Notes under the pieces: generated by a model
Databases searched by the model: none
What the model was told of the DNA's origin: nothing
Seen by the model: only the letters and a program-made list of their open reading frames with translations
Program-made: the position numbers and the translations under genes
Source: Squalus acanthias
Lineage: Eukaryota
Direction of reading: 5' to 3'
Assembly: GCA_030390025.1 (NCBI GenBank)
Contig: CM059431.1
Span: 121,770,001 to 121,834,000, forward strand
DNA: 64,000 nt
In this document: positions 2,185-63,089 of the stretch, one piece after another
Layout: each line of letters opens with the position of its first letter
Numbering within the stretch: the first letter of the stretch is position 1

Positions 2185-2660
2185 AGGGGTAGAAATTATT
2201 CTCGGGCGGCTGGAAAAACGGGCGGTATTGGATTGGCCGCCGTTATAAGCTGCATCTGATATTCAGTTCCATTGATTGAATCACAGAGGGATAGTTTGAT
2301 GGGGATGTGGTGAGCAATGCAGATCTGGGGTTTCAATCAATGGAGCGGAGTCTGATGAGCTGCTGACGGACAGCCCGTCCAGAATGGAGATTTGCTGCCT
2401 GCCTCCTCCTGTTCCTCTTTCTCTTCCTCCTCCTCCTCTTCCTGAGCTGGTCCCACAATCCCTGGTGGTAAGGGCTGTGCTTTCATGATGGCCACATTGT
2501 GGGGCATGCAGCAGACCACCACAATATGGGACAGCCGCTCCGCCGAGTACTGGAGGGCTCCTACCGAGCGGTCAAGGCAGGAACTGTTGCTTCAGTAGCC
2601 CGATGGTCTACTTGGTGATGTTCCTCGTGGCAGCATGGCTATCCTTATATGAGTGCTGGC
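2185..2660 (-). mobile_element. Harbinger remnant: TIR-like GGGGTAGAAATT plus transposase C-terminal fragment
   Basis: VVCCMPHNVAI followed by a poly-E tail matches the C-terminus of the transposase at 55703-56863. Confidence 0.7.
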
Positions 2661-3348
2661 CAAGAGTGGTGGGGTTGCAGACAATGCTCCCTCTAAGGTG
2701 CGTGGCTGTGTGGCCATGCACCGATCCGTAAACTCCCATGCACTTCAATTCAAAGGCCACGACAGAGAGCTGGACAGCGGAGAGGGGTCAAATACACAAT
2801 GGTCTGAAAATCCAGACAGAGAGTCATTTACGAGTCTTACGACCTCAGAGCTGAACTCAATTGGAAATTAACAAAAGAGTTGGGGCAGTGGCCACATGGT
2901 AAGGGGGTGGGTGAAGTGTCGGTTGTGTCGCTGTCTGAGAAGTTCTACATGCTCCAGGCAGAAGCTGTAGAGGAGCCGACCTCAGCCAGCTCCCAGCAGT
3001 TGTGGTGGATTGGAAATCCTAACTCACCACGTAGGTTTGGACCCTACCCGCGTCGGATCAACTTATTCTTTCATATAGTTCACCTTGGAGATCCCTGGCC
3101 CCAAAACTGTTCAGCCAGATCCCATGGTGATGAGGGCAGCATGCCCCCTTCTCCTTTGGCACCATGGTTCCGGGGGCCTGTTTTACCGAAACTCAGCACT
3201 CACTGCGGGGCTGGATGAAGCTTTAAAAATCGGTGGGAGAGATCGGTAAATAACCACGTGTACCTCATCTTCTTAGTAAACCGATTGCAAGTGAGTGAGC
3301 TGCTGAGTTTTACCCACAACAGGTGAGTAAGAAAGTACTTTGTTGCTG

Positions 3349-4032
3349 TCAAATGGCAGTGATATGGTCGCACAACAACTGCACATTAAGTGAGTGGTAG
3401 CCTTTGCGGTTACAGAACATCTTAGCATTGTTACACGGTGCCCATAAAGCCACGTGTGTGCGGTCGATGGCACCCTGCACCATGGGGAAGCCCGCCATCC
3501 TTGCAAAGCCACATACACACTCATTCAGAGAGAAGACAATGAAGTCCCTTCTCCTGGATTGGAGAGTCTCTGTGACCTCCCGGATGCAGCGATGGATGGT
3601 GAATTGGGAGATATTAGCTATGTCTCCTGCTGCAGGCTGGAAGGAGCCACTGGCAAAAAAGTTGAGGGCCACGGTGACCTTGAAGGCCACTGGGAAAGCC
3701 ATTGTTGCCCTGCTCTGCAGGTCTGGTTCCAGGAGGTGGCAGAGTTCTGTGACCACCTCCTTGGTGAAGCGGAGCCTCCTAGTACACTGCTCCTTGCTTA
3801 AGTGGAGGTAAGAGAAGTGCTCTCGGAAGACCCTAGGTGAATAAGGCCTCCTGCTGAGAGCCCTCCTAGCCTTCCTCCTCCTCCTCCAACATCTGTGAGC
3901 ATCTTGTCCTCTTCTTCGCTGCCTCCACTCCATCTCCTGAAGATACTCGAGCGTGAGGGGAACTGCAAGTACAGCTCCCATGACTGGGAGCAAGTGGTGT
4001 GAGCAGAAGCCTTTAAATGATGTTAAACCCAC
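3349..4032 (-). pseudogene. Truncated Harbinger (HARBI1-like) transposase, N-terminal half
   Basis: Motifs VTVALNFFASGSFQ, GFPMVQGAIDRTHV and NRKGYHSLNVQLLCD; the C-terminal half is missing. Confidence 0.85.
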
Positions 4033-4343
4033 TCTTGTGCCTTTATTCTTTCAGATAATCAGCCACCGCCTGCTCAGCCTGTCCCTCAGCCTTGTAAGGG
4101 ATTCCTGACCCTGCGTGTCTCGCAGCCTGTGAGATTCACGCGGCTCTGTGCAGCCTGTATGTCAGTGCGGGTCTAGGCCTGGTTGCCTGTTCTGGTCTCC
4201 AGCCAGTCTGGGAACACTAGACACACCTGTGAGTGGTTCGAATCACTCTCCCTTACGGTTCTAGACACTGGACTTAGATGCGAGAGCAGTAATGGAGATA
4301 AAACTCATGTAGACTTGGTTTGAATGGTACGAAATGGAAAATC

Positions 4344-4349
4344 TTTATT
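4344..4349 (-). terminator. Putative poly(A) signal AATAAA in the 3' LTR
   Basis: tttatt on the plus strand, about 250 nt from the LTR 3' end; present in all three LTR copies. Confidence 0.55.
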
Positions 4350-5146
4350 GCATGATACTTAAGATTATGAAATACATGTCATAAGCACAGATTAATGACA
4401 GTACAATCTTACAAACAGTTATATAGTCGATCTTAGGGAAACGAGGAACGAACGGCACAAAATAAATAGGGGCACACATTACAAATATCCTTAATCCTTA
4501 AACCCTCCCCTATCAATATCTATCCTAAACTAGATTCGTAGGATCTCGAGACTCATGCTCACCACTCGTGATAACTCGGAGAAATTCCGAATAGCTGATC
4601 GGATGTTTTTCACCGCAGCACCCACGTGTCGGTCAGGAGATCTCCTGGTCCCACTTGTTTACTTGCTTCTGCTGCTCCGGCTAGCAGGCTGGACCGTCTG
4701 CTGTGATGAAGACCTGTGTTGGTTGGTTTAACAGGTACTCTTGGAGCACAGTTGTCAATATCGTCGATGCAATATGTTTCGTTATAAGTTCGAAGAAGTC
4801 TTCCTGGCGAGGAAAACTTGGCTAATCGACCTACAGGCGCGGTCGGGATTTACTGACCGTGGCGATGGATATGGTCTTCCTCTCTTCTCATCTCATCTCA
4901 TCTCATCTCATCTCATCTCGGGCCTTTGGTTCCGCTGCCAGTTACCAACATAGGTCTTCGTTACGCGACACGAGGTAGATCCGAACGGATCAGAAAGTTC
5001 AACAGTCTTTTCAGAAGAGGCAACAGGCAAGCAGAAGCCCAACTACGAGTACACAGGAGCAGCCACGAGGTTACGAATCGACCGGATAAAAGCACAGGAG
5101 CAAGAGAGCAAGAGCAAGAGAGCGAATGGACGGTTTGGAGCCTGCA

Positions 5147-5215
5147 ATTATAGTGCAAAAATCTTCCGTTTCCCGCCCAACTATAATGTCCATTCTTTTG
5201 TTTAAGGTTTGGCGC
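5147..5215 (-). promoter_or_regulatory. Putative LTR promoter: TATAAT, GC box and E2F-like sites (equivalent copy in the 5' LTR at about 12865-12933)
   Basis: Minus strand GGGCGGGAAACGGAAG...CACTATAATTGC followed by a pyrimidine-rich initiator-like tract; TTTCCCGC and TTTGGCGC match the TTTSSCGC consensus. Confidence 0.45.
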
Positions 5216-5754
5216 CCAAATGTCTTGTATGGGTGATCTCCGTTCTTAATGGGTTTCGGGGTTACTCGTAAATGTCTGAGTACCTGTTAATATTTCTCCC
5301 ATTGTTAAATCGGTCGGTGTTCTCCCTGGAGGGGTTTGGGGCTTCCAAGTGTCCTGTATAACTACCTGCTAACGGCTCTCTCATCGTAGAGTCGTTGGGA
5401 TTTTACATATTAATGTCTTTTGGATGGGCCCTTGATTACTCGGTACAATGGCTTTCCTTTGTACCTGGGAGACCGATTCCAGTATCTATGTTTATACTGC
5501 AAACCCATAATGTCTCGTGTATTATCTTCACTGTGCTGAATCTTAATCGATCTTGCACAAATGTTTATTGGAACGCCATCTTGTCTGCCTGTTGAAAAAG
5601 TCTAGAATGTTCTGTCACGAGGTGCGGCGGCCATTTTACAGGCTGCTTGTGTCCACTTTAAACTTGCCAGCATTCTACTGAAATAAAAGCTGTTTGAACG
5701 AAACTTTGTGTTTTCTCCTTATTAATAAAATCGCGATATATTGCGAATTCTACA

Positions 5755-5765
5755 GTCCCTCCTGT
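5755..5765 (-). other. Polypurine tract
   Basis: Minus strand ACAGGAGGGAC directly abuts the TG start of the 3' LTR. Confidence 0.8.
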
Positions 5766-6207: not shown

Positions 6208-8559
6208 TTACACGGTGCTTTCATCGTGCACGCGCACGTAACGTTCTCGCCACTCTCCCGTGTTTTCATGCTTGGTGAGGCGTTTGTCTCTTTTACAATG
6301 TACGACCAATAGGTACACTACAATGAAAACTTGGCATACGACTAAAATGTGGGAGGCTATTCTGATCCATGAAGGTACTTCAATATTGGTGAACAGATTC
6401 CACCACGGTGGAACTACTATATCCAGAATGTCTGTTCCTATTTCGACAGTTTTCTGCTCTAATGTATAAAAATGTTTCTGTGATACCGCGACGGCTTTCA
6501 AAAGCTTGGTGAGGTGTTCAGGGAGAGGGGGAATGAGGTATCCAAAATGCGCGACGAATTGCTGCAAGTCGGTGAAATTCTCTTTTACTGTGAGATGAAC
6601 AGTGGATGGTTCAGGGATTGGGATAATTCGCTGTTGTGCTACTTGAACTTCCGCCCTGGGTTTAAAACAGAAACTGCTGTCACTCACCGGACACCGGCTA
6701 CGGTTTCCATGCTGGTAGTGTTGCGCTGCAGTGGTAACACAATATGTTCCACCCCCGATGTATGCTACCTGCGGAGGCACATGATCTTGTGCCATTGCCT
6801 CCATGGTGCAATTCATGGACTTGGCGCCAGCCGTTCTGAACCCGCACTGTGGTGTTAAAAAGGCATTCAAGTGCTGGGGGCACAGTATTATGTGTGCTCC
6901 CCTGCCACGACAACCAGAGAGATCTGTACCTGTCATCGTTTGCTCCCAGCGGATGACGTAAGGTGGAACCGCTGCATAACGAATGTGGGCTCCCCCCTGA
7001 ATGACACCGATGTTCTCTACCCGATATACCGGGGCGGGCTTTGCTGTGTCGCCCAAAACCGGCATACGTAAAACTATACCCATAATGGTATGGTTTGATC
7101 GTCCGCAGTCCACGGGGACTGGGTATGCTTCTGAAGCTAGCCTGAGCTGGCACGGGCTTAATGCGTTCTGAAAAGGGTGGAGCGCCCGTAGGTGTTTGTT
7201 ACTTATCCAGGACGGAACCAAACCTTGTTTTAAATCCTCCAAATTACTGCGGCCCTCGCCCAGTAACCACGCCCCGTAAAGCACGCACACCTCGTTCTGC
7301 GCAGCTTGATCGGATGCATTCCGATCTTCCCTAATCAGGGCATTTACCGTCTTTGCATGTTTCTCCAACTCTGCTATAATTTCCTTTAAATGGAGGGTCA
7401 TGGCTTGGTCCTCGTGTAGACCCGACCCTACCACTTTATTCTCATCTGTTAGAATGTCCTTTAATTGTGTCTTTAAACCATTAATCTGGGTCTGCAGCTC
7501 CACACTGTCTAGAGCGTTGACCACAGATGTACCTGTGTTAAAAGCAGTGAACGCATCGTTCACCAAACCCCTTCTTTGCCTCCCTACTTGATCCAAAACT
7601 TCCTGTGGCACGGTGTACAAACTTGTTTTATCAATTTCCGCGAAATCGAATTCGTAAAATTGTCTGAACATCTTGGTCAACAGGACCTGGTACAACTGTT
7701 CCGTCTTTTTGGGGCACCACTCTGGTAACCGTACCTCAGTGAGATTTAAAATCACCGAGGCCACCGCGTAATGTACCCCCTGAAATAGTATCTGGTCTGT
7801 GGGGACCAGTACCAAACCATTCCCGGGTCCCTTACTAGCTTTAGGGCACCCTTCTTCCTCAGCTAGAACCACCGGAATCGTGGGCGGGGCTTTGCGTGGG
7901 CGCGTAATGAGTTCAGTGGCATTTACTGGGATTGGGGAGAATGGGGCTCCGCACCCCCTGGTGCTCGCATCCCACCTCATCCCCTGTCCGTTATCCTGCC
8001 ATTGATTAATAAAAAATATGGAGATGCCTTTGGGGCAAACGTACTTTGACCCCCACATACATACATAAATTCCCTCATCCGGTTCCCACCATTTGTCCCA
8101 ACAGACTTTCACTTGTCCGTCTGTCCCCGTAATTGTCCGATGGGTATTATTACCCAGTCGTTCCCACTCGACCGAAGAGTTTCTCATAGTTTTGCTCAGC
8201 TTTCGCAGCCACCACCATCGGCTCAATGGGACCTTCCCACTACAAGTCAAACAAATCCGTTTGCCGACGGTGACGCTGATCCTGGGTGCGATGATCCTTA
8301 CTTTGGGGCACAGTAAAGAAGTCTCTTGGTAGGCAAACCCCGATGTGCTAGAATACTCCGTTGAGTTCGTTCCCAGCCATCCTGGCCACCTTCCCTTGTG
8401 GAAATAGGTGCTGGTCTCCTCTGCCTCCCGTCTTCCGGTCCCATCCACCGCGATGGGGGCCGTGTCCCCGGAACATCCAAACACCACGACATCCTTGGTG
8501 CGGCCTCGATAGGCCAATCCACATCCGATTGCCACGAGCAATACTAGAATTCGTTCCAT
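6208..8559 (-). CDS. env: Envelope glycoprotein (783 aa from the signal-peptide ATG): Ig-like domain, furin site, class I fusion protein with F-like Cys-rich region, TM anchor
   Basis: Signal peptide MERILVLLVAIGCGLA; C..W..DEGIYVC; RQRR|GLVNDAF at 7570-7581; heptad repeat; Cys-rich block TDLSGC...LCPQ...C...C; TM segment ILVVCQVFIVVYLLVV with a basic tail; several N-x-S/T sites; ORF is open. Confidence 0.9.
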   Translation of the reverse strand: MERILVLLVAIGCGLAYRGRTKDVVVFGCSGDTAPIAVDGTGRREAEETSTYFHKGRWPGWLGTNSTEYSSTSGFAYQETSLLCPKVRIIAPRISVTVGKRICLTCSGKVPLSRWWWLRKLSKTMRNSSVEWERLGNNTHRTITGTDGQVKVCWDKWWEPDEGIYVCMWGSKYVCPKGISIFFINQWQDNGQGMRWDASTRGCGAPFSPIPVNATELITRPRKAPPTIPVVLAEEEGCPKASKGPGNGLVLVPTDQILFQGVHYAVASVILNLTEVRLPEWCPKKTEQLYQVLLTKMFRQFYEFDFAEIDKTSLYTVPQEVLDQVGRQRRGLVNDAFTAFNTGTSVVNALDSVELQTQINGLKTQLKDILTDENKVVGSGLHEDQAMTLHLKEIIAELEKHAKTVNALIREDRNASDQAAQNEVCVLYGAWLLGEGRSNLEDLKQGLVPSWISNKHLRALHPFQNALSPCQLRLASEAYPVPVDCGRSNHTIMGIVLRMPVLGDTAKPAPVYRVENIGVIQGGAHIRYAAVPPYVIRWEQTMTGTDLSGCRGRGAHIILCPQHLNAFLTPQCGFRTAGAKSMNCTMEAMAQDHVPPQVAYIGGGTYCVTTAAQHYQHGNRSRCPVSDSSFCFKPRAEVQVAQQRIIPIPEPSTVHLTVKENFTDLQQFVAHFGYLIPPLPEHLTKLLKAVAVSQKHFYTLEQKTVEIGTDILDIVVPPWWNLFTNIEVPSWIRIASHILVVCQVFIVVYLLVVHCKRDKRLTKHENTGEWRERYVRVHDESTV

Positions 8560-8572
8560 CCTTCCTTGGTTC

Positions 8573-8600
8573 CTGTGATCAGATAGAATGAGGTAGCCAG
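8573..8600 (-). promoter_or_regulatory. Putative env splice acceptor
   Basis: Minus strand CTACCTCATTCTATCTGATCACAG|G lies 13 nt upstream of the env ATG. Confidence 0.5.
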
Positions 8601-8845
8601 CCTCGCAAGAGTCTCTGGCTTTTGTGAAGGGTGAGCGGGTCCCCTGACCTCGCCTCACGTAAACTTCAACGTTCGCTGAATAAACTTCAACTAAACCTAA
8701 ATTTAAAACTCCCATCATTTTATCGTTTTCTGTTAAAAACACTACAAACTTAACCTTATTAAAACTATAAACTTAACCTTGAACTATAAACTTACAACTT
8801 AAAACTTATTACTATACAGTGCCGCCCGTTCTCAGGGCGGCCCCT

Positions 8846-9994
8846 TTAAATTCTGAGAAGGCTGCTGCGAGCTCTTCCCGACGGTGGGAGGGCACTGACC
8901 CTTCCCTCTGATCTGCCGCAGCCTGTTGCTGCGCTGACCCTTCCCTCTGATCTGCCGCAGCCTGTTACTGCTGCGATGTGGCCGGTCTGTACCTGGGTTA
9001 TCTTAACCTGAAATTTTCGCCTTGGGGCAGTCTGGGGACATGACCACATCCTCCTGGGCTGGGGTTCTCTGCTTGACCTACGGGGAGTTGCTATGGGCGG
9101 GGGTTCCGTGACGGACGGACCGGGTTCCGAGACCTCCATCGGGATGACCTGGGGTTCCATCACAGTCGCCGGCTCCGCCTCCGCTGACTCCGCCTCCCTA
9201 ACCTCGGGGCTGGCAGTTCGTGGCTCCGCCCTGCTCGGCCCAGCAGGCGGCCCTTCACTCGTGATCTCTGCCTCCCCTGAGGACTGGACGTTCAAAGCGG
9301 GCGGCCACATCTCTGGGAGCCACACCGGTACTCTCTGTGCTCCTATAGCGGCTGGCCCTGCCTCCTCTAGCTCCTCCCTCCTGTCCTCGGGACCTGCAGC
9401 TTGTGTGTCCACCCTGTGTGGATCTCTACCTACAGCCCCCATTCCCTCCAGACCGTTCCTCAGGAACCACCCGTCATCATCACTATGCTCATCTGCACTA
9501 TCCTCATCTGACCAGGGTACCCTGAATTCTTCCTCATCTAACCCCCAATTCCAGAAAAACGCTGCACGATCGTCCGGGATGTCCCTTCCCCTGATGCAAG
9601 CTGCTATGCCTGCCTGTGTGCCTTGTGGTCCTACCTGGGGCTGTGCTTTCCCATTGGCGGGATTTACCCCTGTAGTTTTCCCCTGCGCACCTGGCTGGTA
9701 CAGTTTGCATTGGTTTACATCCTCATACTCCCGGCTTTTGGCTACCCTGTAGGCTGCTTTTATCTCTCTAAGCTGCGCTTCTAGCCTGAGCACGTCTAAC
9801 TTTCCCATTGCTCGGGCGTTCTCCTCCCGCAGGGCCTGCTCTCTAAGCTGCCCTTCCAGCCCATCTATTTTCCCTAATAAGCGGGCGTTCTCCTCCCGCA
9901 AGGCCTGCTCTTTTAACCTGGCCTCCTCACCGCAGACCCCCTCCTGTGCGTGTCTTTTAAAAGGACACAGGTAGGCAGGCTGCGTGGGCTCTAG
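8846..9994 (-). CDS. Unknown 382-codon ORF in the pol position, in frame with gag after UGA-CUAG (coiled coil, acidic, Pro/Glu-rich, basic tail)
   Basis: 31 stop-free codons (LEPTQPAYLCPFKRH...) link the gag stop to ORF 8846-9901 in the same frame; no protease, RT or integrase motifs. Confidence 0.7.
   Translation of the reverse strand, partial: LEPTQPAYLCPFKRHAQEGVCGEEARLKEQALREENARLLGKIDGLEGQLREQALREENARAMGKLDVLRLEAQLREIKAAYRVAKSREYEDVNQCKLYQPGAQGKTTGVNPANGKAQPQVGPQGTQAGIAACIRGRDIPDDRAAFFWNWGLDEEEFRVPWSDEDSADEHSDDDGWFLRNGLEGMGAVGRDPHRVDTQAAGPEDRREELEEAGPAAIGAQRVPVWLPEMWPPALNVQSSGEAEITSEGPPAGPSRAEPRTASPEVREAESAEAEPATVMEPQVIPMEVSEPGPSVTEPPPIATPRRSSREPQPRRMWSCPQTAPRRKFQVKITQVQTGHIAAVTGCGRSEGRVSAATGCGRSEGRVSALPPSGRARSSLLRI
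8895..8966. repeat. 39-bp in-frame tandem duplication encoding TGCGRSEGRVS twice
   Basis: ctgacccttccctctgatctgccgcagcctgtt at 8895 and 8934. Confidence 0.9.
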
Positions 9995-11806
9995 TCATTG
10001 GGTACTATTAGACGGTCCTGCGGCACCTACGGGGCCGGTTGCGACCGCCACCTGTCCACGCGCATTCAAGACCAGCTTGCGCATGGCTCCTAACACTGCT
10101 TCGAGGTCGTCGGGAGGGGTGGGTGCCTTGGCTTCCTTAGCCGGGACAGGCGCCTGGGCTCGGACCGCGGGATTTTTATCCTTGGAATCCTTCCAAGGGT
10201 TCCTGCAATGCTTGCGCCAGTGCCCTGTCTTCCCACACCCGTAACAAGCATTACTTGCCTGTGGGGCGCGATTACCCTCCTGATGCCACTCTCTTTGATA
10301 CGGGGCTGCGGGTCGTACCTCATGTACTCTTCCCTTAAGGGGACGTGTTGCCATACCCCTTATATTGCGATAACCTAACGTGAGTCGATTCAAGACCGAC
10401 TCTTCCGTAATGTTGGGGTCATTGGGATCAAACCATGCTTTTGCCTGTTCTCTAACGGCTGGTAAACTGTTGGCTATTATGCACCTAAGCCAATGAGTTA
10501 AAGCTAAACCTTCCACATCTTCGCGCTCGGGCGCACCTAGACAGCTGCGCTCATATACTGGCCACAGCCTGTCGGCAAAAACCTTCGGGGGTTCTCCCTC
10601 CATCTGCACTGTCTGTCCCACTCTAGCAAACGGACCTTCGTCGTTCGCCCCCAACACTTCCAGGACCTCATTCTTTAATTCCTCATAACTCTTGGTTCCC
10701 CTCTTGCTCTCGCCTGAGAGACACTGAAGGACCGAGCTGTCTAATGAGAACAGCAGCATTTTTGCTGTCTCCCCATCATCGCAGCCGTTAATGGCTGCGG
10801 CTTGCTCAACTTCTCTGAAATGTACGGAAGGGTCGTCTGCCTCGGTCAGCTTCCGTACGTGATTTATCATAGCTCTCAGCTGATGTGAACTGTGAGGCAA
10901 CACCAGCTGTCCGAGGAGATCCCCCGGTTCTTCCCCACCGTTTCTGCTTGGGCCCCTTTTAATACCCGTTACTGGATACAACGATCCCTTTTCTACTTCC
11001 TTTTCAATGGGCTCTTTTGTTTCTCCCATTGCTTCCTCCCTAACCCAGGTTTCTGAATAGCTGGGTGGCGCGGAGGGCGCAGTGGCTATTACTTCTTCTG
11101 CTTTACTTGGTGGGGATTTTCTAAATCTCTCATTTACTAGCGGCTGGTGCGCCGACGGATTGATAAGGCACACCATGCCGTTCGCATTGTTCACGGCCTT
11201 TTTGAGGTGCTCTATCTCCCTTTGGCAGGCGCTATGATCGGCTCCCTGAAACTTATCCTCAAGGGCCAACTTATATGCCGCCCTAACCCCCATTAAGCTC
11301 TCTTCTTGAGTTCTTATCTGGGCAGCTTGGCGGTTACATCTTTCCTTTAACCTGCTCTCATTCAATTTTGCCTCAGTGACCTGGCACTCGAGATAATCTA
11401 TCCTTGTTTTAAGGTGACTGGAGACTTCCTGGCTTTCTTGGTGTAACTCATTTAAATTCTTAATGAGCACCTCCCCTCCAGAAACCTTCTCCTCCATTTC
11501 TCCCTCTAAATGACTGATTCGAGCTACTAGCGCTGTAATGGTCTGGTTTGAAATCTGAACCTGCCTTTTGTAACACATAAGCCAGACTGCTTTCTCAAGT
11601 GTCTTTTTATGTTCTTTACTATCTGTCCACCTTTCAGCTGCCTCTAGTGGGCTCTTATCCGCTAACAATTCACTTATCCATTTCTTAGTTAGATTAACCT
11701 TTCCAAACACATAATCCGCTATCTTTTCCTGCATAACATTTCGTACAGTCATTCCAAAATCTAACACACTACCCTCTCGCTGCCAGTGTCCTGCCGCGGT
11801 CGCCAT
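9995..11806 (-). CDS. gag: Gag polyprotein (603 aa from the ATG at 11806)
   Basis: N-terminal coiled coil; PSAPPSY; capsid MHR-like QMEGEPPKVFADRL; zinc knuckle CYGCGKTGHWRKHC at 10205-10246; the start codon could instead be a downstream Met. Confidence 0.92.
   Translation of the reverse strand: MATAAGHWQREGSVLDFGMTVRNVMQEKIADYVFGKVNLTKKWISELLADKSPLEAAERWTDSKEHKKTLEKAVWLMCYKRQVQISNQTITALVARISHLEGEMEEKVSGGEVLIKNLNELHQESQEVSSHLKTRIDYLECQVTEAKLNESRLKERCNRQAAQIRTQEESLMGVRAAYKLALEDKFQGADHSACQREIEHLKKAVNNANGMVCLINPSAHQPLVNERFRKSPPSKAEEVIATAPSAPPSYSETWVREEAMGETKEPIEKEVEKGSLYPVTGIKRGPSRNGGEEPGDLLGQLVLPHSSHQLRAMINHVRKLTEADDPSVHFREVEQAAAINGCDDGETAKMLLFSLDSSVLQCLSGESKRGTKSYEELKNEVLEVLGANDEGPFARVGQTVQMEGEPPKVFADRLWPVYERSCLGAPEREDVEGLALTHWLRCIIANSLPAVREQAKAWFDPNDPNITEESVLNRLTLGYRNIRGMATRPLKGRVHEVRPAAPYQREWHQEGNRAPQASNACYGCGKTGHWRKHCRNPWKDSKDKNPAVRAQAPVPAKEAKAPTPPDDLEAVLGAMRKLVLNARGQVAVATGPVGAAGPSNSTQ
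11788..11805 (-). other. Primer-binding site, tRNA-Arg(UCG)
   Basis: TGGCGACCGCGGCAGGAC, 5 nt downstream of the 5' LTR, complementary to the vertebrate tRNA-Arg-TCG 3' end GTCCTGCCGCGGTCGCCA as I recall it. Confidence 0.85.
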
Positions 11807-11810
11807 TTTC

Positions 11811-13472
11811 TGTAAGGGATTCCTGACCCTGCGTGTCTCGCAGCCTGTGAGATTCACGCGGCTCTGTGCAGCCTGTATGTCAGTGCGGGTCTAGGCCTTG
11901 TTGCCTGTTCTGGTCTCCAGCCAGTCTGGGAACACTAGACACACCTGTGAGTGGTTCGAATCACTCTCCCTTACGGTTCTAGACACTGGACTTAGATGCG
12001 AGAGCAGTAATGGAGATAAAACTCATGTAGACTTGGTTTGAATGGTACGAAATGGAAAATCTTTATTGCATGATACTTAAGATTATGAAATACATGTCAT
12101 AAGCACAGATTAATGACAGTACAATCTTACAAACAGTTATATAGTCGATCTTAGGGAAACGAGGAACGAACGGCTCAAAATAAATAGGGGCACACATTAC
12201 AAATATCCTTAATCCTTAAACCCTCCCCTATCAATATCTATCCTAAACTAGATTCGTAGGATCTCGAGACTCATGCTCACCACTCGTGATAACTCGGAGA
12301 AATTCCGAATAGCTGATCGGATGTTTTTCACCGCAGCACCCACGTGTCGGTCAGGAGATCTCCTGGTCCCACTTGTTTACTTGCTTCTGCTGCTCTGGCT
12401 AGCAGGCTGGACCGTCTGCTGTGATGAAGACCTGTGTTGGTTGGTTTAACAGGTACTCTTGGAGCACAGTTGTCAATATCGTCGATGCAATATGTTTCGT
12501 TATAAGTTCGAAGAAGTCTTCCTGGCGAGGAAAACTTGGCTAATCGACCTACAGGCGCGGTCGGGATTTACTGACCGTGGCGTTGGATATGGTCTTCCTC
12601 TCTTCTCATCTCATCTCATCTCATCTCATCTCATCTCGGGCCTTTGGTTCCGCTGCCAGTTACCAACATAGGTCTTCGTTACGCGACACGAGGTAGATCC
12701 GAACGGATCAGAAAGTTCAACAGTCTTTTCAGAAGAGGCAACAGGCAAGCAGAAGCCCAACTACGAGTACACAGGAGCAGCCACGAGGTTACGAATCGAC
12801 CGGATAAAAGCACAGGAGCAAGAGAGCAAGAGCAAGAGAGCGAATGGACGGTTTGGAGCCTGCAATTATAGTGCAAAAATCTTCCGTTTCCCGCCCAACT
12901 ATAATGTCCATTCTTTTGTTTAAGGTTTGGCGCCCAAATGTCTTGTATGGGTGATCTCCGTTCTTAATGGGTTTCGGGGTTACTCGTAAATGTCTGAGTA
13001 CCTGTTAATATTTCTCCCATTGTTAAATCGGTCGGTGTTCTCCCTGGAGGGGTTTGGGGCTTCCAAGTGTCCTGTATAACTACCTGCTAACGGCTCTCTC
13101 ATCGTAGAGTCGTTGGGATTTTACATATTAATGTCTTTTGGATGGGCCCTTGATTACTCGGTACAATGGCTTTCCTTTGTACCTGGGAGACCGATTCCAG
13201 TATCTATGTTTATACTGCAAACCCATAATGTCTCGTGTATTATCTTCACTGTGCTGAATCTTAATCGATCTTGCACAAATGTTTATTGGAACGCCATCTT
13301 GTCTGCCTGTTGAAAAAGTCTAGAATGTTCTGTCACGAGGTGCGGCGGCCATTTTACAGGCTGCTTGTGTCCACTTTAAACTTGCCAGCATTCTACTGAA
13401 ATAAAAGCTGTTTGAACGAAACTTTGTGTTTTCTCCTTATTAATAAAATCGCGATATATTGCGAATTCTACA
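11811..13472 (-). repeat. 5' LTR (1662 bp)
   Basis: Direct repeat of 4093-5754, adjacent to the PBS. Confidence 0.97.
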
Positions 13473-16400
13473 GCCTCCCAGTGGCAGCAACGCTGGAGAG
13501 GAAGAGGAACAAGAAGCCAGAGCCTCACTGCTTGTGTCTCCCAAGGGCGAAAGGTCCAATAATGGGGTCACGCATTTGCTGGAGGGGGACCTAGGAAATG
13601 GGTCTGATGTGGGTGAAGCTCCGGGCCCTAGTGGGCTGCAGCAACACCACGGGAAAAGGGAAGCTTAGGGGCTATCTCCCTGGAGGGTGAGTGCACATGC
13701 GAGCTCTGCTGCACAGGACTCAGATGAGGACCTTGATGTGGAGGCGTTGACCACACAGGCGATGAGCATGCACACTGAGCTCATGGGTGCAATGGCAAGG
13801 GTGCCCGAGAGCATGGATGCACTGGCTAGGAGCGTGGAGGAGTCTGCCTCCAGCATTGCACCCATCTCTGCGCAAACCATCGATCCCATCCTTGGCAGTT
13901 TGCAAAGGATGGTTGCCTCGCAGAGAGACCGTGGGGACCCAGACCTCATGCCACGTGTCATTGGTGAGGTGGCAGCAGCTATTGCAGCACAGCCCAAAGC
14001 AACACAACAGCTTAGTGCTGTAATGGATGCAGTGGTTGGTGACATCTAATCTCAGACTGCTCTCATGCAGTCTCAGATTGATGCCATGCAAGCGCTGACT
14101 GCTGCCATCGTCGCTGGGTCGCCCTCAGTCCACCGGGGATCTCATGGTGCCGCAGCAGGCCAGCAATCTGTGCTTGAGCAGATTGCTCCGGATGCTGAGG
14201 TGCTGCCCCGAGGAAGTGGCAGTGTGTCGGTCGAGCAGGAAGGTGCTGTCCTCTCTCAGGATGACAGCATTCCTGCTCCCACCACTGCCACTCCGCCATT
14301 GCACTTGCCGCAGCCTGTAACCCAGCCATCCCGGACTGCTGCCGCCCATGCTGAGTTTGTGCAGTCTGCAGCTGGGCCTTACAGCCCTGAGGTGGCTGAG
14401 GGCGTCCTGCAAGGCCATCTGCAATCTCTGGCTCCCAGACTCAGCAGCCTTCCCCCAGCCTTGCCGCAGCCACTGGGGCCACATTACTGTGGAGCAGTAG
14501 GGTTGGGAGGGGGGGAATTGCAAAGGGGAGGGCAATCATTGAGGAAGGGCGAGTAAATAATACGTTATTAACAAATGGAGGGAATGTGTGTAAATAATTT
14601 GATGTGTTTGTAAATATATTGTTGAGTTTGGTAACAAATAGTTCCGTTTGCTAAGAAATATTTGTGTTTATTGATAAATTGTTGTGTTTGTTTATTAATT
14701 GGTTATGTTTCCTAAGAGAGAGTTGTGCATAATAATAAATATTTAATTCGACGTTGCACATTTTGTGATGTTTCTCATTTGAGCTTTGCCCGGTGATAGG
14801 GGCTGTGAGCTGGCTGTAATGATGTGGTTGTTCTACGCAAAGGCCATGTGCTGTCTCATTTATTGGAAGCGCTGTGTAATGAGGTGATCACGAATGGCCC
14901 TTGTAGAAGCAACATTGAGTGGCTCCCTCCTCTGTTGCTGCTGCTCCTCCTCCTCTTCATCCTCCTCCTCTGCCTCCTCCTCCTCCTTTCTTTCTTCCTC
15001 CTCCTGAGGTAGACCTCCTCAGTGGTAATAGCTGGGCGCTCGGAATGGCCAGGTTGTGCAGCATGCAGCACACAACAATGAAAAGGGAGACTCGATCAGG
15101 GGAGTACTGCAGGGTTCCTCCAGAGCAGTCAAGGCAGTGGAACAATTGCTTTAGCTCCCCGATAATCTGTTCGATCAGGTTTCTGGTGGTGCTATGGGTG
15201 TCATTGTACGCGTGCTGAGCAGGAGTGTTGGGGTTGTGGAAGGGTGTCATCAGCCAGGTTGCAAGTGGATAACCAATGTCTCCGAGCAGCCATCCGCAAG
15301 CTTCACATGGTGGGTTGAACAGTGTTGGGACTCCGGTCATTGACAGGGAGGATGCGCTGTCTGTGGTCGCACACCAACTGAACATTCAGAAAGTGGTAGT
15401 CTTTGTGGTTACGGAAGACCTCTGCATTGTGATGAGGTGCCCGCAATGCCACGTGGGTGCAGTCAATGGCGCCCTTAACCATGAGGAAGCCTGCTATCCT
15501 TGCAAAGCCACATGAGAATTCATCTTGTTTCTCCCTGGTAATGGGGAATGAGATGTACTCCTTTCTCCTTCTGTACAGAATGTCTATCACCTCACGGTTG
15601 CAGCAATGGATGGTGAACTGTTAAATGTTTGCAATATCCCCTGTTGAAGCCTGAAAGGAACCACTGGCGTAGAAATTGAGAGCGACAGTGACCTTCACTG
15701 CCACTGAGAGAGATGGCCTGGTCCTGAGATGAGGCTGGAACTCTCGCTGCAGGAGGTGGCAAAGCTCTGTGACCACCTCCTTGCTGAAGCGGAGCCTTCT
15801 AAAGCACTGCTCCTCTGACAGATGAATGTAGGAGAACTGCTCCCGGAATACGCTGGGAGGGTAAGGCCTCCTGTTGAGAGCCCTGTTGGCCCTCCTCCCT
15901 GTGGCCATGTTTTCCAATCTTTCTCTCTTCCCCCGCTGCCTCTGACAGTGATGCTGGAGGGTGAGGTCCAGTGCCAGTACAGCCCCCATTAAGTGTTGGA
16001 AATGTTGCACTATCAAATGTAACACAAATGAAAGTGATAAATTTTTCTCAGGATCAAAACTCCTTCAAGTAGAAAAAGCTCAGATCAGTAAAAACACCCG
16101 CCTGCTTCTGTCAAACTGACAAGGCAGCATTGTTTGCTGACAAAAAAAAAACCCTGAAGTTCACGACTTTAAATAGATTTCCTGCAACTCCCAGCCGACT
16201 GCAAACCGCCTCCTCTACCTGTTGTTCCTAATGGCAGGCGCTGAGGCAGGGGTCGACAATAAATTTCCGGTCTGGGGTGCTACCGGGGCGATGCACGGCC
16301 AGATGATGTTACGATCTCCAGCCGCAGGCAGGCATGGCGGTAGTGGTAAGCGCCACCGCAAACCGCCAGGTGAATTTTGCCGGCGGCGCCAACATCGCTG

Positions 16401-27113: not shown

Positions 27114-28811
27114 TGTAGAATTCGCAATATATCGCGATTTCATTAATAAGGAGAAAACACAAAGTTTCGTTCAAACAGCTTTTATTTCAGTAGAATGCTG
27201 GCAGGTTTAAAGTGGACACAAGCAGCCTGTAAAATGGCCACCGCACCTCGTGACAGAACATTCTAGACTTTTCAACAGGCAGACAAGATGGCGTTCCAAT
27301 AAACATTTGTGCAAGATCGATTAAGATTCAGCACAGTGAAGATAATACACGAGACATTATGGGTTTGCAGTATACACATAGATACTGAAATCGGTCTCCC
27401 AGGTACAAAGGAAAGCCATTGTACCGAGGAATCAAGGGCCCATCCAAAAGACATTAATATGTAAAATCCCAATGACTCTACGATGAGAGAGCCGTTAGCA
27501 GGTAGTTATACAGGACACTTGGAAGCCCCAAACCCCTCCAGGGAGAACACCGACCGATTTAACAATGGGAGAAATATTAACAGGTACTCAGACATTTACG
27601 AGTAGCCCCGAAACCCATTAAGAACGGAGATCACCCATACAAGACATTTGAGCGCCAGACCTTAAACAAAAGAATGGACATTATAGTTGGGCGGGAAACG
27701 GAAGATTTTGCACTATAATTGCAGGCTCCAAACCGTCCATTCTCTCTCTTGCTCCTGTGCTTTTATCCGGTCGATTCGTAACCTCGTGGCTGCTCCTGTG
27801 TACTCGTAGTTGGGCTCGCTCCTGCTTGCCTGTTGCCTCTTCTGAAAAGACTGTTGAACTTTCTGATCCGTTCGGATCTACCTCGTGTCGCGTAACGAAG
27901 ACCTATGTTGGTAACTGGCAGCGGAACCGAAGGCCCGAGATGAGATAAGATGAGATGAGATGAGAAGAGAGGAAGACCATATCCATCGCCACGGTCAGTA
28001 AATCCCGACCGCGCCTGTAGGTCGATTAGCCAAGTTTTCCTCGCCAGGAAGACTTCTTCGAACTTATAACGAAACATATTGCATCGATGATAACTGGACT
28101 GTGCCCAAAGTAACTGGAACGTGAAAACATATCGTATCGACGATATTGACAACTGTGCTCGAAGAGTACCTGTTAAACCAACCAACACAGGTCTTCATCA
28201 CAGCAGACGGTCCAGCCTGCTAGCCGGAGCAGCAGAAGCAAGTAAACAAGTGGGACCAGGAGATCTCCTGACCGACACGTGGGTGCTGCGGTGAAAAACA
28301 TCCGATCAGCTATTCGGAATTTCTCCGAGTTATCACGAGTGGTGAGCATGAGTCTCGAAATCCTACGAATCTAGTTTAGGATAGATATTGATAGGGGAGG
28401 GTTTAAGGATTAAGGATATTTGTAATGTGTGCCCCTATTTATTTTGTGCCGTTCGTTCCTCGTTTCCCTAAGATCGACTATATAACTGTTTGTAAGATTG
28501 TACTGTCATTAATCTGTGCTTATGACATGTATTTCATAATCTTAAGTAACATGCAATAAAGATTTTCCATTTCGTACCATTCAAACCAAGTCTACATGAG
28601 TTTTATCTCCATTACTGCTCTCGCATCTAAGTCCAGTGTCTAGAACCGTAAGGGAGAGTGATTCGAACCACTCACAGGTGTGTCTAGTGTTCCCAGACTG
28701 GCTGGAGACCAGAACAGGCAGCAAGGCCTAGACCCGCACTGACATACAGGCTGCACAGAGCCGCGTGAATCCCACAGGCCACGAGACACGCAGGGTCAGG
28801 AATCCCTTACA
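27114..28811 (+). mobile_element. Solo LTR (1698 bp) of the same family as 4093-13472, in the opposite orientation
   Basis: Reverse complement of the proviral LTRs; TGTAG...TTACA ends; ACAT TSD at 27110-27113 and 28812-28815. Confidence 0.97.
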
Positions 28812-29769
28812 ACATCTATTTCTGAAATGACAGCAAAATGTCACTTCAATCTCTCTGAATTTGCAAAGGTTCAGGAATGGTGAATTCTGACTAACAGGTC
28901 ATACAGACCAAAATAGAGGAAAGCCTTATCATGTCAAGAGGGAACAACAATCTTCAGGCCAAATCTTCAGGTTAACTTATTGATATTGCAATATGTTACT
29001 GACCAGCTGCATCCCCTTTTAAAGCTGAATAAGTTGCTTGCTGTTGAATTCGACTATCGCTGTATCGGGGCAACCATTGTGACTGGAACAAAGATGCTGG
29101 GCATTGCACCTGCACAAATTGTACCAGTCACTAAAATGTTTAAAATGCATTGTAGAGCCTCTGTGAACAGAGCGCTTGGAGATCTGTTTTCCAGATGATG
29201 AATCACCAAACCACCTACACATTCCTGGGCTGCTTTCCAAACCCTCGAATACCTTGTCATGCTATAATTCTTCACACTGAATGGGCATGTTTGCTTTTCC
29301 TGCAATACAGCCTTAGAACAATTGAGCTGCAGCTGAAGTTTACTTAGAGTAATGCGTCAGCAATTAGAGAACAAAACTGCGGTCTAAAGATCACGAACTG
29401 CAGAGTCATAAATATTTGAAGGAACAATAGACAAATGCGCCTGCTGCCAGTATTCTGCTTTTAATGACATTTCTCTCAATGGATCTAAACAGTGTTGCAC
29501 AAAATATTCAAAGCATTGATGACTGATGACCCAGAATCATTCAAGAGTGTTGTTGATTAAAATCTTCTTGATAATAATGATTATTTACCAAAGTTCAACA
29601 AGCATGTTGCTGTGGTTTTACTGCACAAAAGGTGGAAATTTGAAATTTCAATACTGTTCTCATAAATGCGACTCTAGCACCCGTAGCAGATTTCAAAGTG
29701 CAGGACACAGATACGATTATTTTAAATGAATACATTTTCACATTTGTATTATAAATATTCTTGAAGTAT

Positions 29770-38289: not shown

Positions 38290-40850
38290 CAACCTTCGAT
38301 ATGGATCATCCACTTGGCACTTCTGGTTGAAAATGGTTGCAAATGCTTCAGCCTTGTCTTTTGCAATCGTGTGCTGGGCACCGCCATCATTGAGGATGGG
38401 AATATTCATGGAGCCTCCTTCTCCGGTCAGTTGTTTAATTGTCCACCACCATTCATGACTGGATGTGGCAGGACTGCAGAATTTTGATCTGATCCCTTAA
38501 TTGTGGGATCGCTTAGCTCTGTCTATGGCATGCTGCTTCCGTTGTTTATCATACAACAACAACAAAAACAACTTGTATTTATATAGTGCCTTTAACGTAG
38601 TAAAATGTCCCAAGGCGCTTCACAGGTGTATTATTAGACAAAACATTTGACACCGAGCCACATAAGGTGAAATTAGGGCAGGTGACCAAAACATTGGTCA
38701 AAGAGGTAGGTTTTAAGGAGCGTTTTAAAAGCGGAAAGAGAGGTAGAGAGGCGGAGAGGTTTAGGCAGGGAATTCCAGAGCTTAGGGCCTAGGCAACAGA
38801 AACATGGCCGCCAATAGTTGAGCGTTTATAATCAGGGATGCTCAAGAGGGCAGAATTAGAGGAGCGCAGATATCTCGGGGAGTTGTGAGGCTGAAGGATA
38901 TTAAAGAGATTGGGCGGGGCGAAGCCATGGAGGGATTTGAAAACAAGGATGAGAATTTTGAAATTGAGGCATTGCTTATCCAGGAGCCAATGTAGGTCAG
39001 CAAGCACGGGGTGATGGGCGAACAGGACTTCGTGCGAGTTATGACATGGGCAGCCGAGTTTTGGATGACCTCAAGTTTACATAGGGTAGAATGTGGGAGT
39101 TCAGCCAAGTCAAGTCTAGAGGTAACAAAGACGTGGATGATGGTTTCAACAGCGGATGAGCTGCAGCAAGGGCGGAGACGGGCGATGTTACGAAGGTGGA
39201 AATAGGCGGTCTTTTTTATGCTGCGGATATGTGGTCGGAAGCTCATTTCAGGGTCAAGTATGACACCAAGGTTGCGAACAGTGTGGTTCAGGCTCATACT
39301 GATGTTAGTGAGAGGGATGGAGTCAGTGGCTAGGGAACTGTGTTTGTGGCAGGGAACGAAAACAATGACTTCGGTCTTCCCAATATTTAATTGGAGAAAA
39401 TTTCTGCTCATCCAGAACTGGATGTCAGACAAGCAGTCTAACAATTTAGAGACCGTGGAGGGGTCGAAAGAAGTGGTGGTGAGGTAGAGCTGGGTGTCAT
39501 TAGTGTACATGTGGAAACTGACGCTGTGTTTTCGGATGATGTCGCCAAGGTGCACCATGTAGATGAGAAATAGGAGGAGGCCAAGGATAGATTATTGGGG
39601 GACACCAGAGGTAATGATGCGGGAGCGGGAAGAGAAGTCGTTGCAGGTGATTGTCTGGTTATGATTAGATAGATAAGAATGGAACCAGGCGAGTGCAGTC
39701 CCACCCAGCTGGAGGACAGTGGAGAGGTGTTGGAGAAGGATGGAGTGGTCAACCGTGTCAAAGGCTGCCGACAAGTCAAGAAGGACAAGGAGGGATAGTT
39801 TACCTTTGTCACAGTCACAAAGGATGTCATTTGTGACTTTGATGAGAGCCGTTTTGGTACTGTGGCAAGGGCGGAAACCTGATTGGAGGGATTCAAACAT
39901 GGAGTTGCGGGAAAGGTGAGCATGGATTTGGAAGTCATGTAGTAATGTTGCAGCTTGCCCAAGTTGGCACCTCATTTTTAGGTACCCCTGGTGCTGCTCC
40001 TGGCATGCCCTTCTGCACTCCTCATTAAACCAGGGTTGGTCCCCTGGCTTGATGGGAATGGTACAGTGAGGGATATGCTGGGCCATGAGGTTACAGATTG
40101 TGGTGGAATACAATTCTGCTGCTGCTGATGGCCCACAGTGCCTCATGGATGCCCAGTTTTGAGCTGCTAGATCTGTTCTGAATCTATTCCTTTTAGCATG
40201 GTGGTAGTTGCATACAACACAATGGAGGGTGTCCTCAGTGTGAAGATGGGACTTCATCTCCACAAGGACAGTGCTGTGGTCACTGCTACCAATGTTGTCA
40301 TGGACAAATGCATCTGTGACAGGTAGATTGGTGAGGATGAGGTCAAGTAGGTTTTTCCCTCGTGTTGGTTCACTCACCACCTGTGTCGCAGGCCCAGTCT
40401 GGCAGCTACGTCTTTCAGGACTTGGCCAGCTCGGTCAGTAGTGGTGCTACCGAGCCACACTTGGTAATGGACATTGTGCTCTTGCTACCCTCAGTGCTTC
40501 TTCCAAGTCGTGTTCAACATGTTGAGTGAGGGCAGTAGGTGGTAATCAGCAAGAGGTTTCCTTGCCCATGCTTGACCTGAAGCCATGAGACTTCACTGGG
40601 TCCGGAGTCAATGTTGAGGGCTCCCAGGGTCACTGCCTCCCGACTGTATACCACTGTACTGCCACCTCTGGTGGGGCTGTCCTGCCGGTGGGATAGGACA
40701 TACGCAGGGATGCTGATGGAGGAGTCTGCGACCTTGGCTGAAAGATATGATTCTGTGAGTATGACTATGCCAGGCTGTTGCTTAACTATTCTGTGGGACA
40801 GTGCTCCCAATTTTGGCACAAGTCACCAGATGTAAGTCAGGAGGACTTTC
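38290..40850 (-). mobile_element. Non-LTR retrotransposon with APE endonuclease (CR1-group), split by the L2 insertion
   Basis: IVILTESYL, RQDSPTRGGSTVVY, PTRGKNLLDLILTN, GSSDHSTV and PWFNEEC; continues at 38290-38552. Confidence 0.8.
38553..39940 (-). mobile_element. L2 LINE 3' portion nested in another LINE
   Basis: QSGFRPCHSTKTAL, LLDLSAAFDTVDH, HMYTNDTQLY and LADLHWL; (GTT)n tail. Confidence 0.9.
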
Positions 40851-52815: not shown

Positions 52816-53367
52816 AAAGAGTCTGCAAAGTGATATAGATAGGTTAAGTGAGTGGGCAAAAAATTGGCAGATGGAGTTTCATGTGGGAAAATGAGAGGTT
52901 ATCAACTTTGGTAGGAAGAATAGAAAAGCAAAATATTATTTAAATGGAGAGAGACTACAGAATGCTGCGGTACAGAGGGATCTGGGTGTCTTCGTACATG
53001 AAACACAAAGGGGTAGAAATTAGGTCGCGCCCCATTTGGGGCGCAAATATCGTCCGGACGCAAATATTAGCGCCTGGCGCTAATTATCGGCACTGACAGG
53101 AAACTTCACTTTTACCGCCCCGGGAGGTGAGTGGAGCGCTAAAGCAGGCGCTGCACACCTCTCTTAAGGCGCAAAGACCAAGGAGTGAGGCGCTAACTCA
53201 GCGCGCGAGCGCAGCACAGCTGCTGCCAGTTAGCGAGGGAACACAGACACACTGGCGCCGGACACTTCTTAAAGCGGGGGGGGCCACTTGCTCCCCAGCC
53301 ACACCCTGCTCATTGCAGCCTTGAATCTCAGCCTGGAGAGACCTGTGAATCCATTTTGCTGCCAAGC

Positions 53368-55408: not shown

Positions 55409-55702
55409 GAGGTGTGACAAAATGCTGGTCATTTTTTTATTAAAGGCCGAGGTTCATGGTCCAACTTTTGTTTAGTGTTTTGGACATTATCTCCAGGTTG
55501 TGAGAACCAGTTATGTTATTGACTGTTTTTTTGTGTTTATTTCTATGAGTTTGTCATGAGGAATTGACACACACAGAGTTTGTAAAATAAATAAGTTTCT
55601 GTATTCAAAATATACATGGCTGGTGGTTGGAATTATTGGTGCCTTGGCCGGCTTAGAGGTTGCGTGCTGGGTTGATTAGTGTTTGTAGCAATGGCAGGGG
55701 CC

Positions 55703-63080: not shown

Positions 63081-63089
63081 ATAGGGGCT

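Follow-up and report, generated by a model that had tools for sequence, protein, structure and literature searches.

The DNA considered here, a window of 64,000 nucleotides of the Squalus acanthias genome (assembly GCA_030390025.1, contig CM059431.1, positions 121,770,001 to 121,834,000 of the forward strand), carries on its minus strand a provirus in which gag is followed, past an in-frame UGA stop codon, by a 382-codon open reading frame (ORF), here termed X, that stands in the place of pol and precedes env. The interpretation favoured for this locus, with a probability of roughly 0.72, is that it represents a young copy of a non-autonomous class I (gamma/epsilon-like) endogenous retrovirus (ERV), in which X is an in-frame remnant of Pol and the Gag-X fusion a by-product. 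The enzyme-coding sequence missing from the element amounts to about 3.5 kb, and a single internal deletion of that size would have taken the protease core, reverse transcriptase (RT), RNase H and most of integrase while preserving the frame. Left over would be gag, the UGA codon, about the first 12 codons of protease, a helix of some 65 codons for which no origin was detected, the last strand of integrase, the whole Pol tail and env.

In autonomous relatives of the element, where gag and pro-pol share one frame, the UGA is the only barrier between them and, by analogy with gamma- and epsilonretroviruses, would allow a low level of readthrough. The CAA-UGA-CUAG context would have passed unchanged into the pol-less element, with a small share of ribosomes expected to continue past the stop and make a Gag-X (Gag-deltaPol) protein of 986 residues. 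The element would make its own Gag and Env and, because it lacks all of the enzymes, would borrow protease, RT and integrase in trans from autonomous relatives; mobilisation in trans is suggested by the copy number reached after the deletion and by the young pair of long terminal repeats (LTRs).

The composition of X carries much of this argument. An earlier sequence-only reading of the window had described X as a novel ORF and had listed an acidic and a basic motif among its features, and the novelty is not supported by comparison with related elements. Codons 81 to 382 are colinear, with no break in frame, with the Pol end of L059, one of several loci (L048, L049, L053, L057 and L059) taken from the same 3.7-Gb assembly, at 59% amino-acid identity over 306 residues and 78% nucleotide identity (tblastn, E 2.5e-104), and they also align with L048. 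When 1.84 billion representative proteins were searched exhaustively with HMMER, the only match was P0006 (BLASTP E 2e-17), a protein consisting of an integrase C-terminus, which begins with an SH3-like domain, and a Pol tail. The alignment of the tails runs from the last integrase strand (AVKVPRRTKWFHVNQCKLYKPG versus AYRVAKSREYEDVNQCKLYQPG) to a common end, ...SLLRI, and the 3' junction of the deletion maps to X codons 81-93. The peptides quoted in the sequence-only reading (LEPTQPAYLCPF, WSDEDSADEHSDDDGW and RRSSREPQPRR) are all present, and its acidic and basic motifs belong to a series of conserved islands of the Pol tail, namely NQCKxYxPGAQG, the W..DEEE acidic patch, RRSxxxPQPRKxW and AATGCGxS. 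At the other end of X, the suggestion that LEPTQPAYLCPF might be the original N-terminus of protease was borne out by alignment: autonomous relatives read gag-TGA-LEPAQPVYLCPL...DTGA in a single frame, with the stop codon between the nucleocapsid knuckle and the protease DTGA. Past the stop, homology is beyond doubt over the first 35 nt and can be argued for out to about 95 nt; the blastn alignment to L048 ends at 32 nt.

Between these two Pol-derived segments lies the only part of X that lacks a source. In a single-sequence AlphaFold2 model, residues 21-96 are predicted to form one long helix and the remainder to be disordered, with pLDDT of 84-97 over 10-residue blocks covering residues 21-80 and below 50 in the tail; half of the helix is made up of a 75-nt tandem duplication. 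Searched by blastn-short, neither L048 nor the remainder of the element yielded more than words of 11-12 nt, and comparison of the helix with the coiled coil of Gag gave a BLASTP E of 1.7, a tblastn E of 0.003 and an hhalign probability of 17.6%. Descent of the helix from the gag coiled coil is a lead only, because coiled coils match each other by composition. Pfam returned nothing for X beyond sub-threshold coiled-coil noise, and the ESM Atlas held no cluster above 0.81, with low recognition. Judged by its sequence, X is a protease N-terminus, a helix of undetected source, an integrase end and a Pol tail, and not a new gene.

The autonomous layout from which such an element would derive is present in the same genome. 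In L048 a gag ORF (459-2324) is followed in the same frame by a second ORF (2325-5402), with a single TGA between them. Past the TGA the sequence reads LKPAQPVYLCPL...DTGA, the DTGA lying 36 codons after the stop, and Pfam then recognises RVP, RVT_1, RNase_H, Integrase_H2C2 and rve, followed by a long C-terminal tail ending ...SLFRI and by env. Among solved structures the RT of L048 is closest to that of XMRV/MLV (E 2.6e-69), and the placement in class I is by this likeness and by gene order. The window copy has none of the protease, RT, RNase H and integrase domains found in L048; all of these families went unmatched in Pfam, in agreement with the sequence-only reading, which had regarded the provirus as lacking pol. 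A pattern specifying the autonomous junction (CAATGACTAGAGCCC-N(80-110)-DTGA codons) has 736 matches in the genome and its control none, and CAA-UGA-CUAG is therefore the ordinary gag-pro junction of autonomous elements.

A 28-mer spanning the 5' breakpoint of the pol-less form has 925 exact matches in the genome, and its control again none; both 925 and 736 are exact-pattern counts, hence lower bounds, and not strictly comparable. All 39 siblings fetched have the order gag-X-env and align colinearly to the window copy along 6.4 kb (96-99.6% identity). The common breakpoint and layout mark the pol-less arrangement as a trait of the family, which one deletion produced and later copying multiplied. 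Enzyme loss at a common breakpoint, intact LTRs, a target-site duplication, a primer-binding site (PBS) and autonomous kin in the genome are together what a deletion derivative presents. By their gag ends, the junctions of L049, L053 and L057 are closest to the pol-less family and that of L059 is among the closest, the nearest autonomous subfamily being represented by one copy's junction of 261 nt (L053) and Pol end of 1.3 kb (L059). L048 and L059 are related autonomous elements and candidate sources of the enzymes. Relative to L048, the window provirus is 85% identical in nucleotide sequence over the env region and 71-73% identical over gag and the LTR end, and the families look like mosaics arising from recombination.

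The junction itself was described accurately by the sequence-only reading: gag ends CAA TGA CTA G and the frame then stays open for 382 more codons, giving 603+1+382 = 986 positions, as the coordinates confirm. X contains no stop in its own frame, whereas the two other sense frames have 22 and 18 and the three antisense frames 15, 3 and 16. On average a dinucleotide shuffle of X carries 13.7 stops, and none of 2000 is open, on which ground a chance ORF was rejected. Among the fetched siblings the TGA is present in 39/39, CTAG in 38/39 and the complete CAA-TGA-CTAG in 37/39. The flanking sequence has 756 genome matches, and in the first 100 of these listed the stop position is TGA in 98 cases, TAA in one and AGA in one. 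In an alignment of 12 junctions that represent at least two subfamilies, 11 have the CUAG context and L048 has CUAA. Gamma- and epsilonretroviruses express pro-pol by stop-codon readthrough (PMC13517186), and in vertebrate cells UGA-CUAG alone is enough for readthrough levels that range from a few percent up to about 30%, reporter mutagenesis indicating that UGA is preferred and CUAG needed (PMC4132726). Of the two signatures of a UGA-CUAG readthrough site, the conserved context is found here, and purifying selection in the extension is not found within the pol-less family; in the autonomous relatives the extension is pro-pol, and the coding signature is trivially present.

Structure downstream of the stop codon is less clear-cut. 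The GTGTC/GACAC hairpin pointed out in the sequence-only reading does pair, but it is merely the tip of a longer imperfect hairpin predicted over 54 nt, with a folding energy of -26.1 kcal/mol (z -2.17; 5/200 shuffles fold equally well). Its 5' arm lies in the conserved N-terminal codons of protease and its 3' arm in sequence specific to the pol-less family; the 39 siblings show singleton variants only in this region, and hence offer no test of covariation. For the autonomous junctions (n=11), RNAalifold predicts a UCUACCUGUGUC/GAGAUGGAGGUAGA stem in which all changes are one-sided and no compensatory pairs occur. The pol-less copy has lost the GAGAUGGAGGUAGA 3' arm, and the same 5' arm is predicted to pair with a different, family-specific sequence. 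No pseudoknot of the MLV type, which follows the stop after an 8-nt spacer, was found at the junction, Rfam giving no match and folding giving only the stem without compensatory changes.

Selection within the family was assessed on an alignment of 40 copies, the window copy and its 39 siblings, with dN/dS obtained by simple counting and with shared changes, those seen in two or more copies, taken as having mostly arisen in replicating lineages. On shared substitutions the rough dN/dS is 0.12 in both gag and env and 0.55 in X, with off-frame controls at 0.95-1.9, and shared changes depart from singleton changes in gag (Fisher p 6e-4) and in env (p 1e-12) and do not in X (p 0.70). Tree parsimony gives synonymous to non-synonymous ratios on internal branches of 56:24 for gag, 170:40 for env and 17:33 for X, the last differing from gag plus env (p 2e-9) and not from the ratio of 62:127 on the terminal branches of X (p 0.87). 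Gag and env are clearly under strong purifying selection in the pol-less family, while X shows no amino-acid constraint detectable in the family and is indistinguishable from post-insertion decay. The proposal that the gag-pol recoding signal had been kept in order to make a Gag extension stands insofar as the recoding site is retained; the purpose assigned to it finds no counterpart in the agreement between internal and terminal branches. The Pol tail is fast-evolving everywhere and nearly neutral even between autonomous copies, with a dN/dS of 0.86 between the tail of X and that of autonomous L059 and of 0.71 between two autonomous tails; for the window copy versus L048 the values are 0.21 in gag and 0.11 in env.

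Decay of the three frames gives a similar picture. X is open in 37 of the 39 siblings, gag in 34 and env in 27, the siblings having been chosen by similarity to X, which biases the share of open X upward. In a less biased table of 150 copies, ranked on X codons 1-100 only, 130 keep a frame of 368-408 codons and 20 (13%) are truncated at 109-332 codons, and per codon X decays no slower than env does. Interrupted frames in sibling copies, which the sequence-only reading had named as speaking against its own proposal, do occur, in those 20 copies, but the large majority remain open. The number of 13-codon repeats near the end of X varies in the family, open frames of 369, 382, 395 and 408 codons fitting one to four units, and a separate 4-codon indel gives frames of 373, 386 and 399 codons. 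Gag-X is probably an inherited by-product and not a selected accessory protein, and X would be dispensable to the element.

Several observations weigh against this conclusion. Every conserved island of the Pol tail is intact in X, and all indels in X relative to L059 are in frame; about 290 tail codons are still open at a dS of 0.26 from the nearest sampled autonomous tail, where a neutral simulation leaves the tail open in 5.8% of cases at 85 substitutions and in 27% at 40. Site counting alone finds slightly more synonymous changes than expected among those shared in X (18/50, binomial p 0.03). Lastly, the new 3' arm of the hairpin still pairs with the old 5' arm, a re-pairing that could reflect selection to keep readthrough. 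None of these points discriminates between selection acting on X and recent derivation from a Pol tail that was itself constrained; openness, in-frame indels and synonymous excess cannot be told from divergence that accumulated before the tail was cut off from a functional Pol.

The same observations would fit a selected and functional Gag-X, with Gag, an oligomerising helix and the motifs of the Pol tail brought together into particles by readthrough. Such a protein would help the parasite to co-assemble, compete or interfere with helper Gag-Pro-Pol or with host partners. A 382-codon frame held open in most copies, the retention of all tail islands, the rebuilding of the hairpin, a confidently predicted new helix and a simulation that disfavours long neutral drift all lean in this direction, as does the finding that pol-less copies at least equal the motif-bearing autonomous junctions in number. 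Conservation of the islands across lineages that are otherwise 33-65% identical further suggests a role at the protein level in the autonomous viruses. Recent descent predicts retention of the motifs just as well, however, and the absence of detectable amino-acid constraint in the family, the near-neutral tail between autonomous copies, the loss of X by truncation at a rate like that of env decay, and an excess of non-synonymous shared changes in the first 100 codons of X (9, against 2 synonymous) together make a functional Gag-X unlikely, at perhaps one chance in several. A more specific form of the idea, a parasite of a parasite in which UGA-CUAG readthrough makes an enzyme-free adaptor of Gag, coiled coil and Pol tail for competing with or exploiting helper or host partners, is somewhat more doubtful still. 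If true, such an adaptor would explain why the pol-less family equals or outnumbers its helpers, and no retroviral lineage before this family would have been shown to rely on readthrough of the UGA-CUAG class.

A different explanation begins at the 3' end of X, where the last 110 nt or so of the frame and about 100 nt past its stop codon are nearly invariant in three lineages, the conservation crossing the stop codon; elsewhere, the Pol tails of the same lineages have just 48-65% protein identity. The block gives a non-coding reason to keep the 3' end of pol, and it includes a pyrimidine-CAG sequence, CCTTCTCAG, that is a plausible env splice acceptor. X might be hardly translated at all, the deletion having removed or altered the downstream stimulator such that UGA terminates efficiently, and its DNA might persist only as cis-acting RNA (an env splice acceptor, a post-pol hairpin, packaging or transport signals) and as spacer. 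That the best-conserved nucleotides of the region run straight across the stop codon, that the predicted GAGAUGGAGGUAGA arm of the autonomous stem is gone and that X evolves almost neutrally would all accord with this. Reporter work, by contrast, obtained several percent readthrough from UGA-CUAG in the absence of downstream structure (PMC4132726), the CAA-UGA-CUAG context is unchanged in nearly all siblings, and a role in cis covers the 3' 200 nt or so and not some 900 nt of open frame; an untranslated X is improbable, a little more so than the adaptor. Capture of a host gene, as in acutely transforming retroviruses with Gag-onc fusions, would fit the layout, in which an ORF of non-viral appearance takes the place of pol as an in-frame extension of gag, and a helix with no viral homologue, but it is close to refuted, since 302 of the 382 codons have a colinear counterpart in the Pol of autonomous relatives, a tandem duplication within the helix accounts for half of it, the sole protein match is an integrase C-terminus with Pol tail, and searches with HMMER, Pfam and the ESM Atlas found no homology of the insert to a cellular gene.

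As an ERV deletion derivative that keeps an ancestral recoding site, the element is known in kind. Its autonomous relatives are built like the gamma- and epsilonretroviruses MoMLV, WDSV, SSSV, ZFERV and SnRV, with gag and pro-pol in one frame and a single stop between them, but differ from them in the UGA-CUAG context and in the lack of a detected MLV-type pseudoknot, and the frame past the stop in the window copy is without enzymes. The retroviral stop contexts given in section 4.1.2 of a 2026 review are UAGGGA, UGAAGA, UGACGA, UGAAGU and UAGGGC, and UGA-CUAG is absent from that section (PMC13517186); literature searches brought up no paper on a retroviral UGA-CUAG junction, nor, among the 12 listed of 958 matches and the 12 listed of 113, one on a chondrichthyan ERV of this kind. 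With a lokiretrovirus affiliation in view, PMC7947760 was scanned for mentions of readthrough, frameshifting and sharks and contained none. The closest likeness in context is to the vertebrate genes OPRL1, OPRK1, AQP4 and MAPK10 and to alphavirus UGA-CUA sites, where the same seven nucleotides follow the last sense codon (PMC4132726). Compared with sites of the OPRL1 type, the candidate readthrough site here is a retroviral gag-pro junction present in more than 1,400 proviral copies, with a possible downstream hairpin.

Loss of enzyme genes at a shared breakpoint, with intact LTRs and PBS, autonomous kin in the same genome and a defective form at least as numerous as those kin, also characterises ERV derivatives mobilised in trans, namely IAP I-delta-1, ETn/MusD, the bovine D-type elements and recKoRV. 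I-delta-1 carries a 1.9-kb gag-pol deletion and needs complementation (PMC1331978), and bovine ERVK[2-1-LTR] D-type elements dominate new insertions (PMC10924933). The dogfish-window element departs from these derivatives in retaining full-length gag and env under selection, with only pro-pol lost and the leftover of pol lying in frame behind a readthrough stop, whereas part of gag is deleted in I-delta-1 and the bovine D-type elements have no intact ORFs; its mobilisation in trans is deduced rather than demonstrated. MoMSV likewise depends on a helper (PMC13517186, Table 2) and keeps the region of the gag-pol junction, but viruses of that type are exogenous laboratory isolates with a captured host oncogene, whereas the present element is a germline multi-copy family in which nothing host-derived was found. 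What is unusual is therefore the UGA-CUAG context, together with a parasite that has lost only pro-pol, holds gag and env under selection and is represented by some 925 copies against 736 autonomous junctions.

The features of the provirus and of the rest of the window are collected in Table 1. The two LTRs are 99.76% identical, differing at 4 of 1663 aligned positions (self-BLAST, 11811-13473 versus 4093-5755), and the internal region of 6.05 kb comprises gag, the TGA, X, a 127-nt spacer and env. Integration by MLV duplicates 4 bp of target, and the duplication flanking this provirus resembles it; for the RT of the autonomous relative, MLV/XMRV is the nearest solved structure. The PBS is complementary at 18/18 positions to the 3' end (+CCA) of a host tRNA-Arg gene (L060), an identity that is a single ARAGORN call on that locus; the PBS/tRNA pattern has 435 exact matches in the genome and its control none, and the matches listed lie mostly in tandem arrays of about 1.62-kb spacing on one contig. 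No leader separates the PBS from gag, the PBS encoding the first six codons of Gag (MATAAG); L048 has a different version of the PBS in the same place, and a related Rhinoraja protein begins MATTKG. Gag is 50% identical to a Rhinoraja longicauda protein and Env 76% identical to a Rhinoraja protein, the nearest outside proteins to the two coming from skate and sawshark. The RQRR cleavage-like site of Env is followed by about 440 residues, long for a retroviral transmembrane subunit, and for the 836-residue protein neither Pfam nor, at E up to 1, the sequences of the PDB offered a match. None of Gag, X and Env reaches any curated cutoff in Pfam, the best match being the CCHC zinc knuckle of gag at E 0.29, and Rfam over the whole provirus returned nothing relevant.

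Table 1. Positions, within the 64,000-nucleotide window, of the provirus, its parts and other repeats.
Feature	Position	Strand	Remarks
Whole provirus	13472-4093	minus	9.4 kb; gag - X - env
Target-site duplication AGGC	13476-13473 and 4092-4089		4 bp; flanks provirus
5' LTR	11811..13472	minus	1662 bp, TG...CA; self-BLAST and reading of ends and flanks
PBS	11788..11805	minus	18 nt; four bases past 5' LTR; overlaps gag ATG (11806-11804)
PBS-gag overlap	11788-11806	minus	first six Gag codons
gag	11806-9998	minus	603 codons; N-terminal coiled coil, one CCHC knuckle
CAA-UGA-CUAG gag stop context	9991..10000, TGA 9997-9995	minus	readthrough-type context
Predicted imperfect hairpin	9931..9984	minus	54 nt; starts 10 nt past stop codon
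ORF-X	9994-8849, TAA 8848-8846	minus	382 codons, in frame with gag
X codons 1-12	9959..9994	minus	protease N-terminus remnant LEPTQPAYLCPF; aligned with 11 autonomous junctions (LEPAQPVYLCPL)
X codons 17-80	9755..9946	minus	helix part with no detected source; 75-nt tandem duplication (9764-9924)
X codons 81-382 and stop	8846..9754	minus	last strand of integrase C-terminal domain and ~290-residue disordered Pol tail
39-nt (13-codon) duplication	8892-8971	minus	near X end
Conserved block spanning X/pol stop	8821..8860 (wider: 8821-8960)	minus	nucleotide conservation; pol-less copy, L059 and L048 aligned
Splice-acceptor-like CCTTCTCAG	8861-8853	minus	pyrimidine-CAG; putative
7-bp GC hairpin GCCGCCC-loop-GGGCGGC	8841-8821	minus	predicted by folding; loop variable
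env	6208..8718	minus	836 codons; RQRR furin-like site, C-terminal membrane anchor
3' LTR	4093..5754	minus	1662 bp; self-BLAST
Solo LTR, same family	27114-28812	opposite to provirus	95.6-98.5% identical to provirus LTRs
Other repeats	53197-57058; 347-901; 39592-40434; 63039-63773

Beyond the solo LTR, the repeats of the window include a PIF/Harbinger-like pair (a DDE_Tnp_4 transposase and a Myb/SANT-like ORF) together with several RT fragments unrelated to the provirus. Many pol-less copies elsewhere in the genome stand in head-to-tail arrays, spaced by the length of one LTR and the internal region together (7718 nt for the window copy), for example three matches spaced 7718-7723 nt on contig C1 and pairs on C6, C9, C11, C12, C16 and C23; these arrays are proviral tandems sharing LTRs. 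No RNA run was among the sequencing runs listed for the element. Contigs from four runs that span the stretch contain no GT-AG joint, contigs being unable to show strand, level or translation, and the higher run depth over env is uninterpretable, env being 85% identical to another family. Public runs under five coded organism labels, not necessarily different species, contain 43-74% of the 31-mers of the internal region, and near-identical copies occur in more than one labelled source.

For the accessory gene that X had appeared to be, these results supply a testable null, in which X is a Pol remnant with no detectable constraint. For research on recoding, the family and its relatives offer a natural and massively replicated retroviral gag-pro junction with UGA-CUAG, a context documented so far for a few vertebrate genes and alphaviruses. 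For the biology of ERVs, a defective element has reached about the copy number of its helpers, a situation that bears on competition with autonomous ERVs and on their possible extinction.

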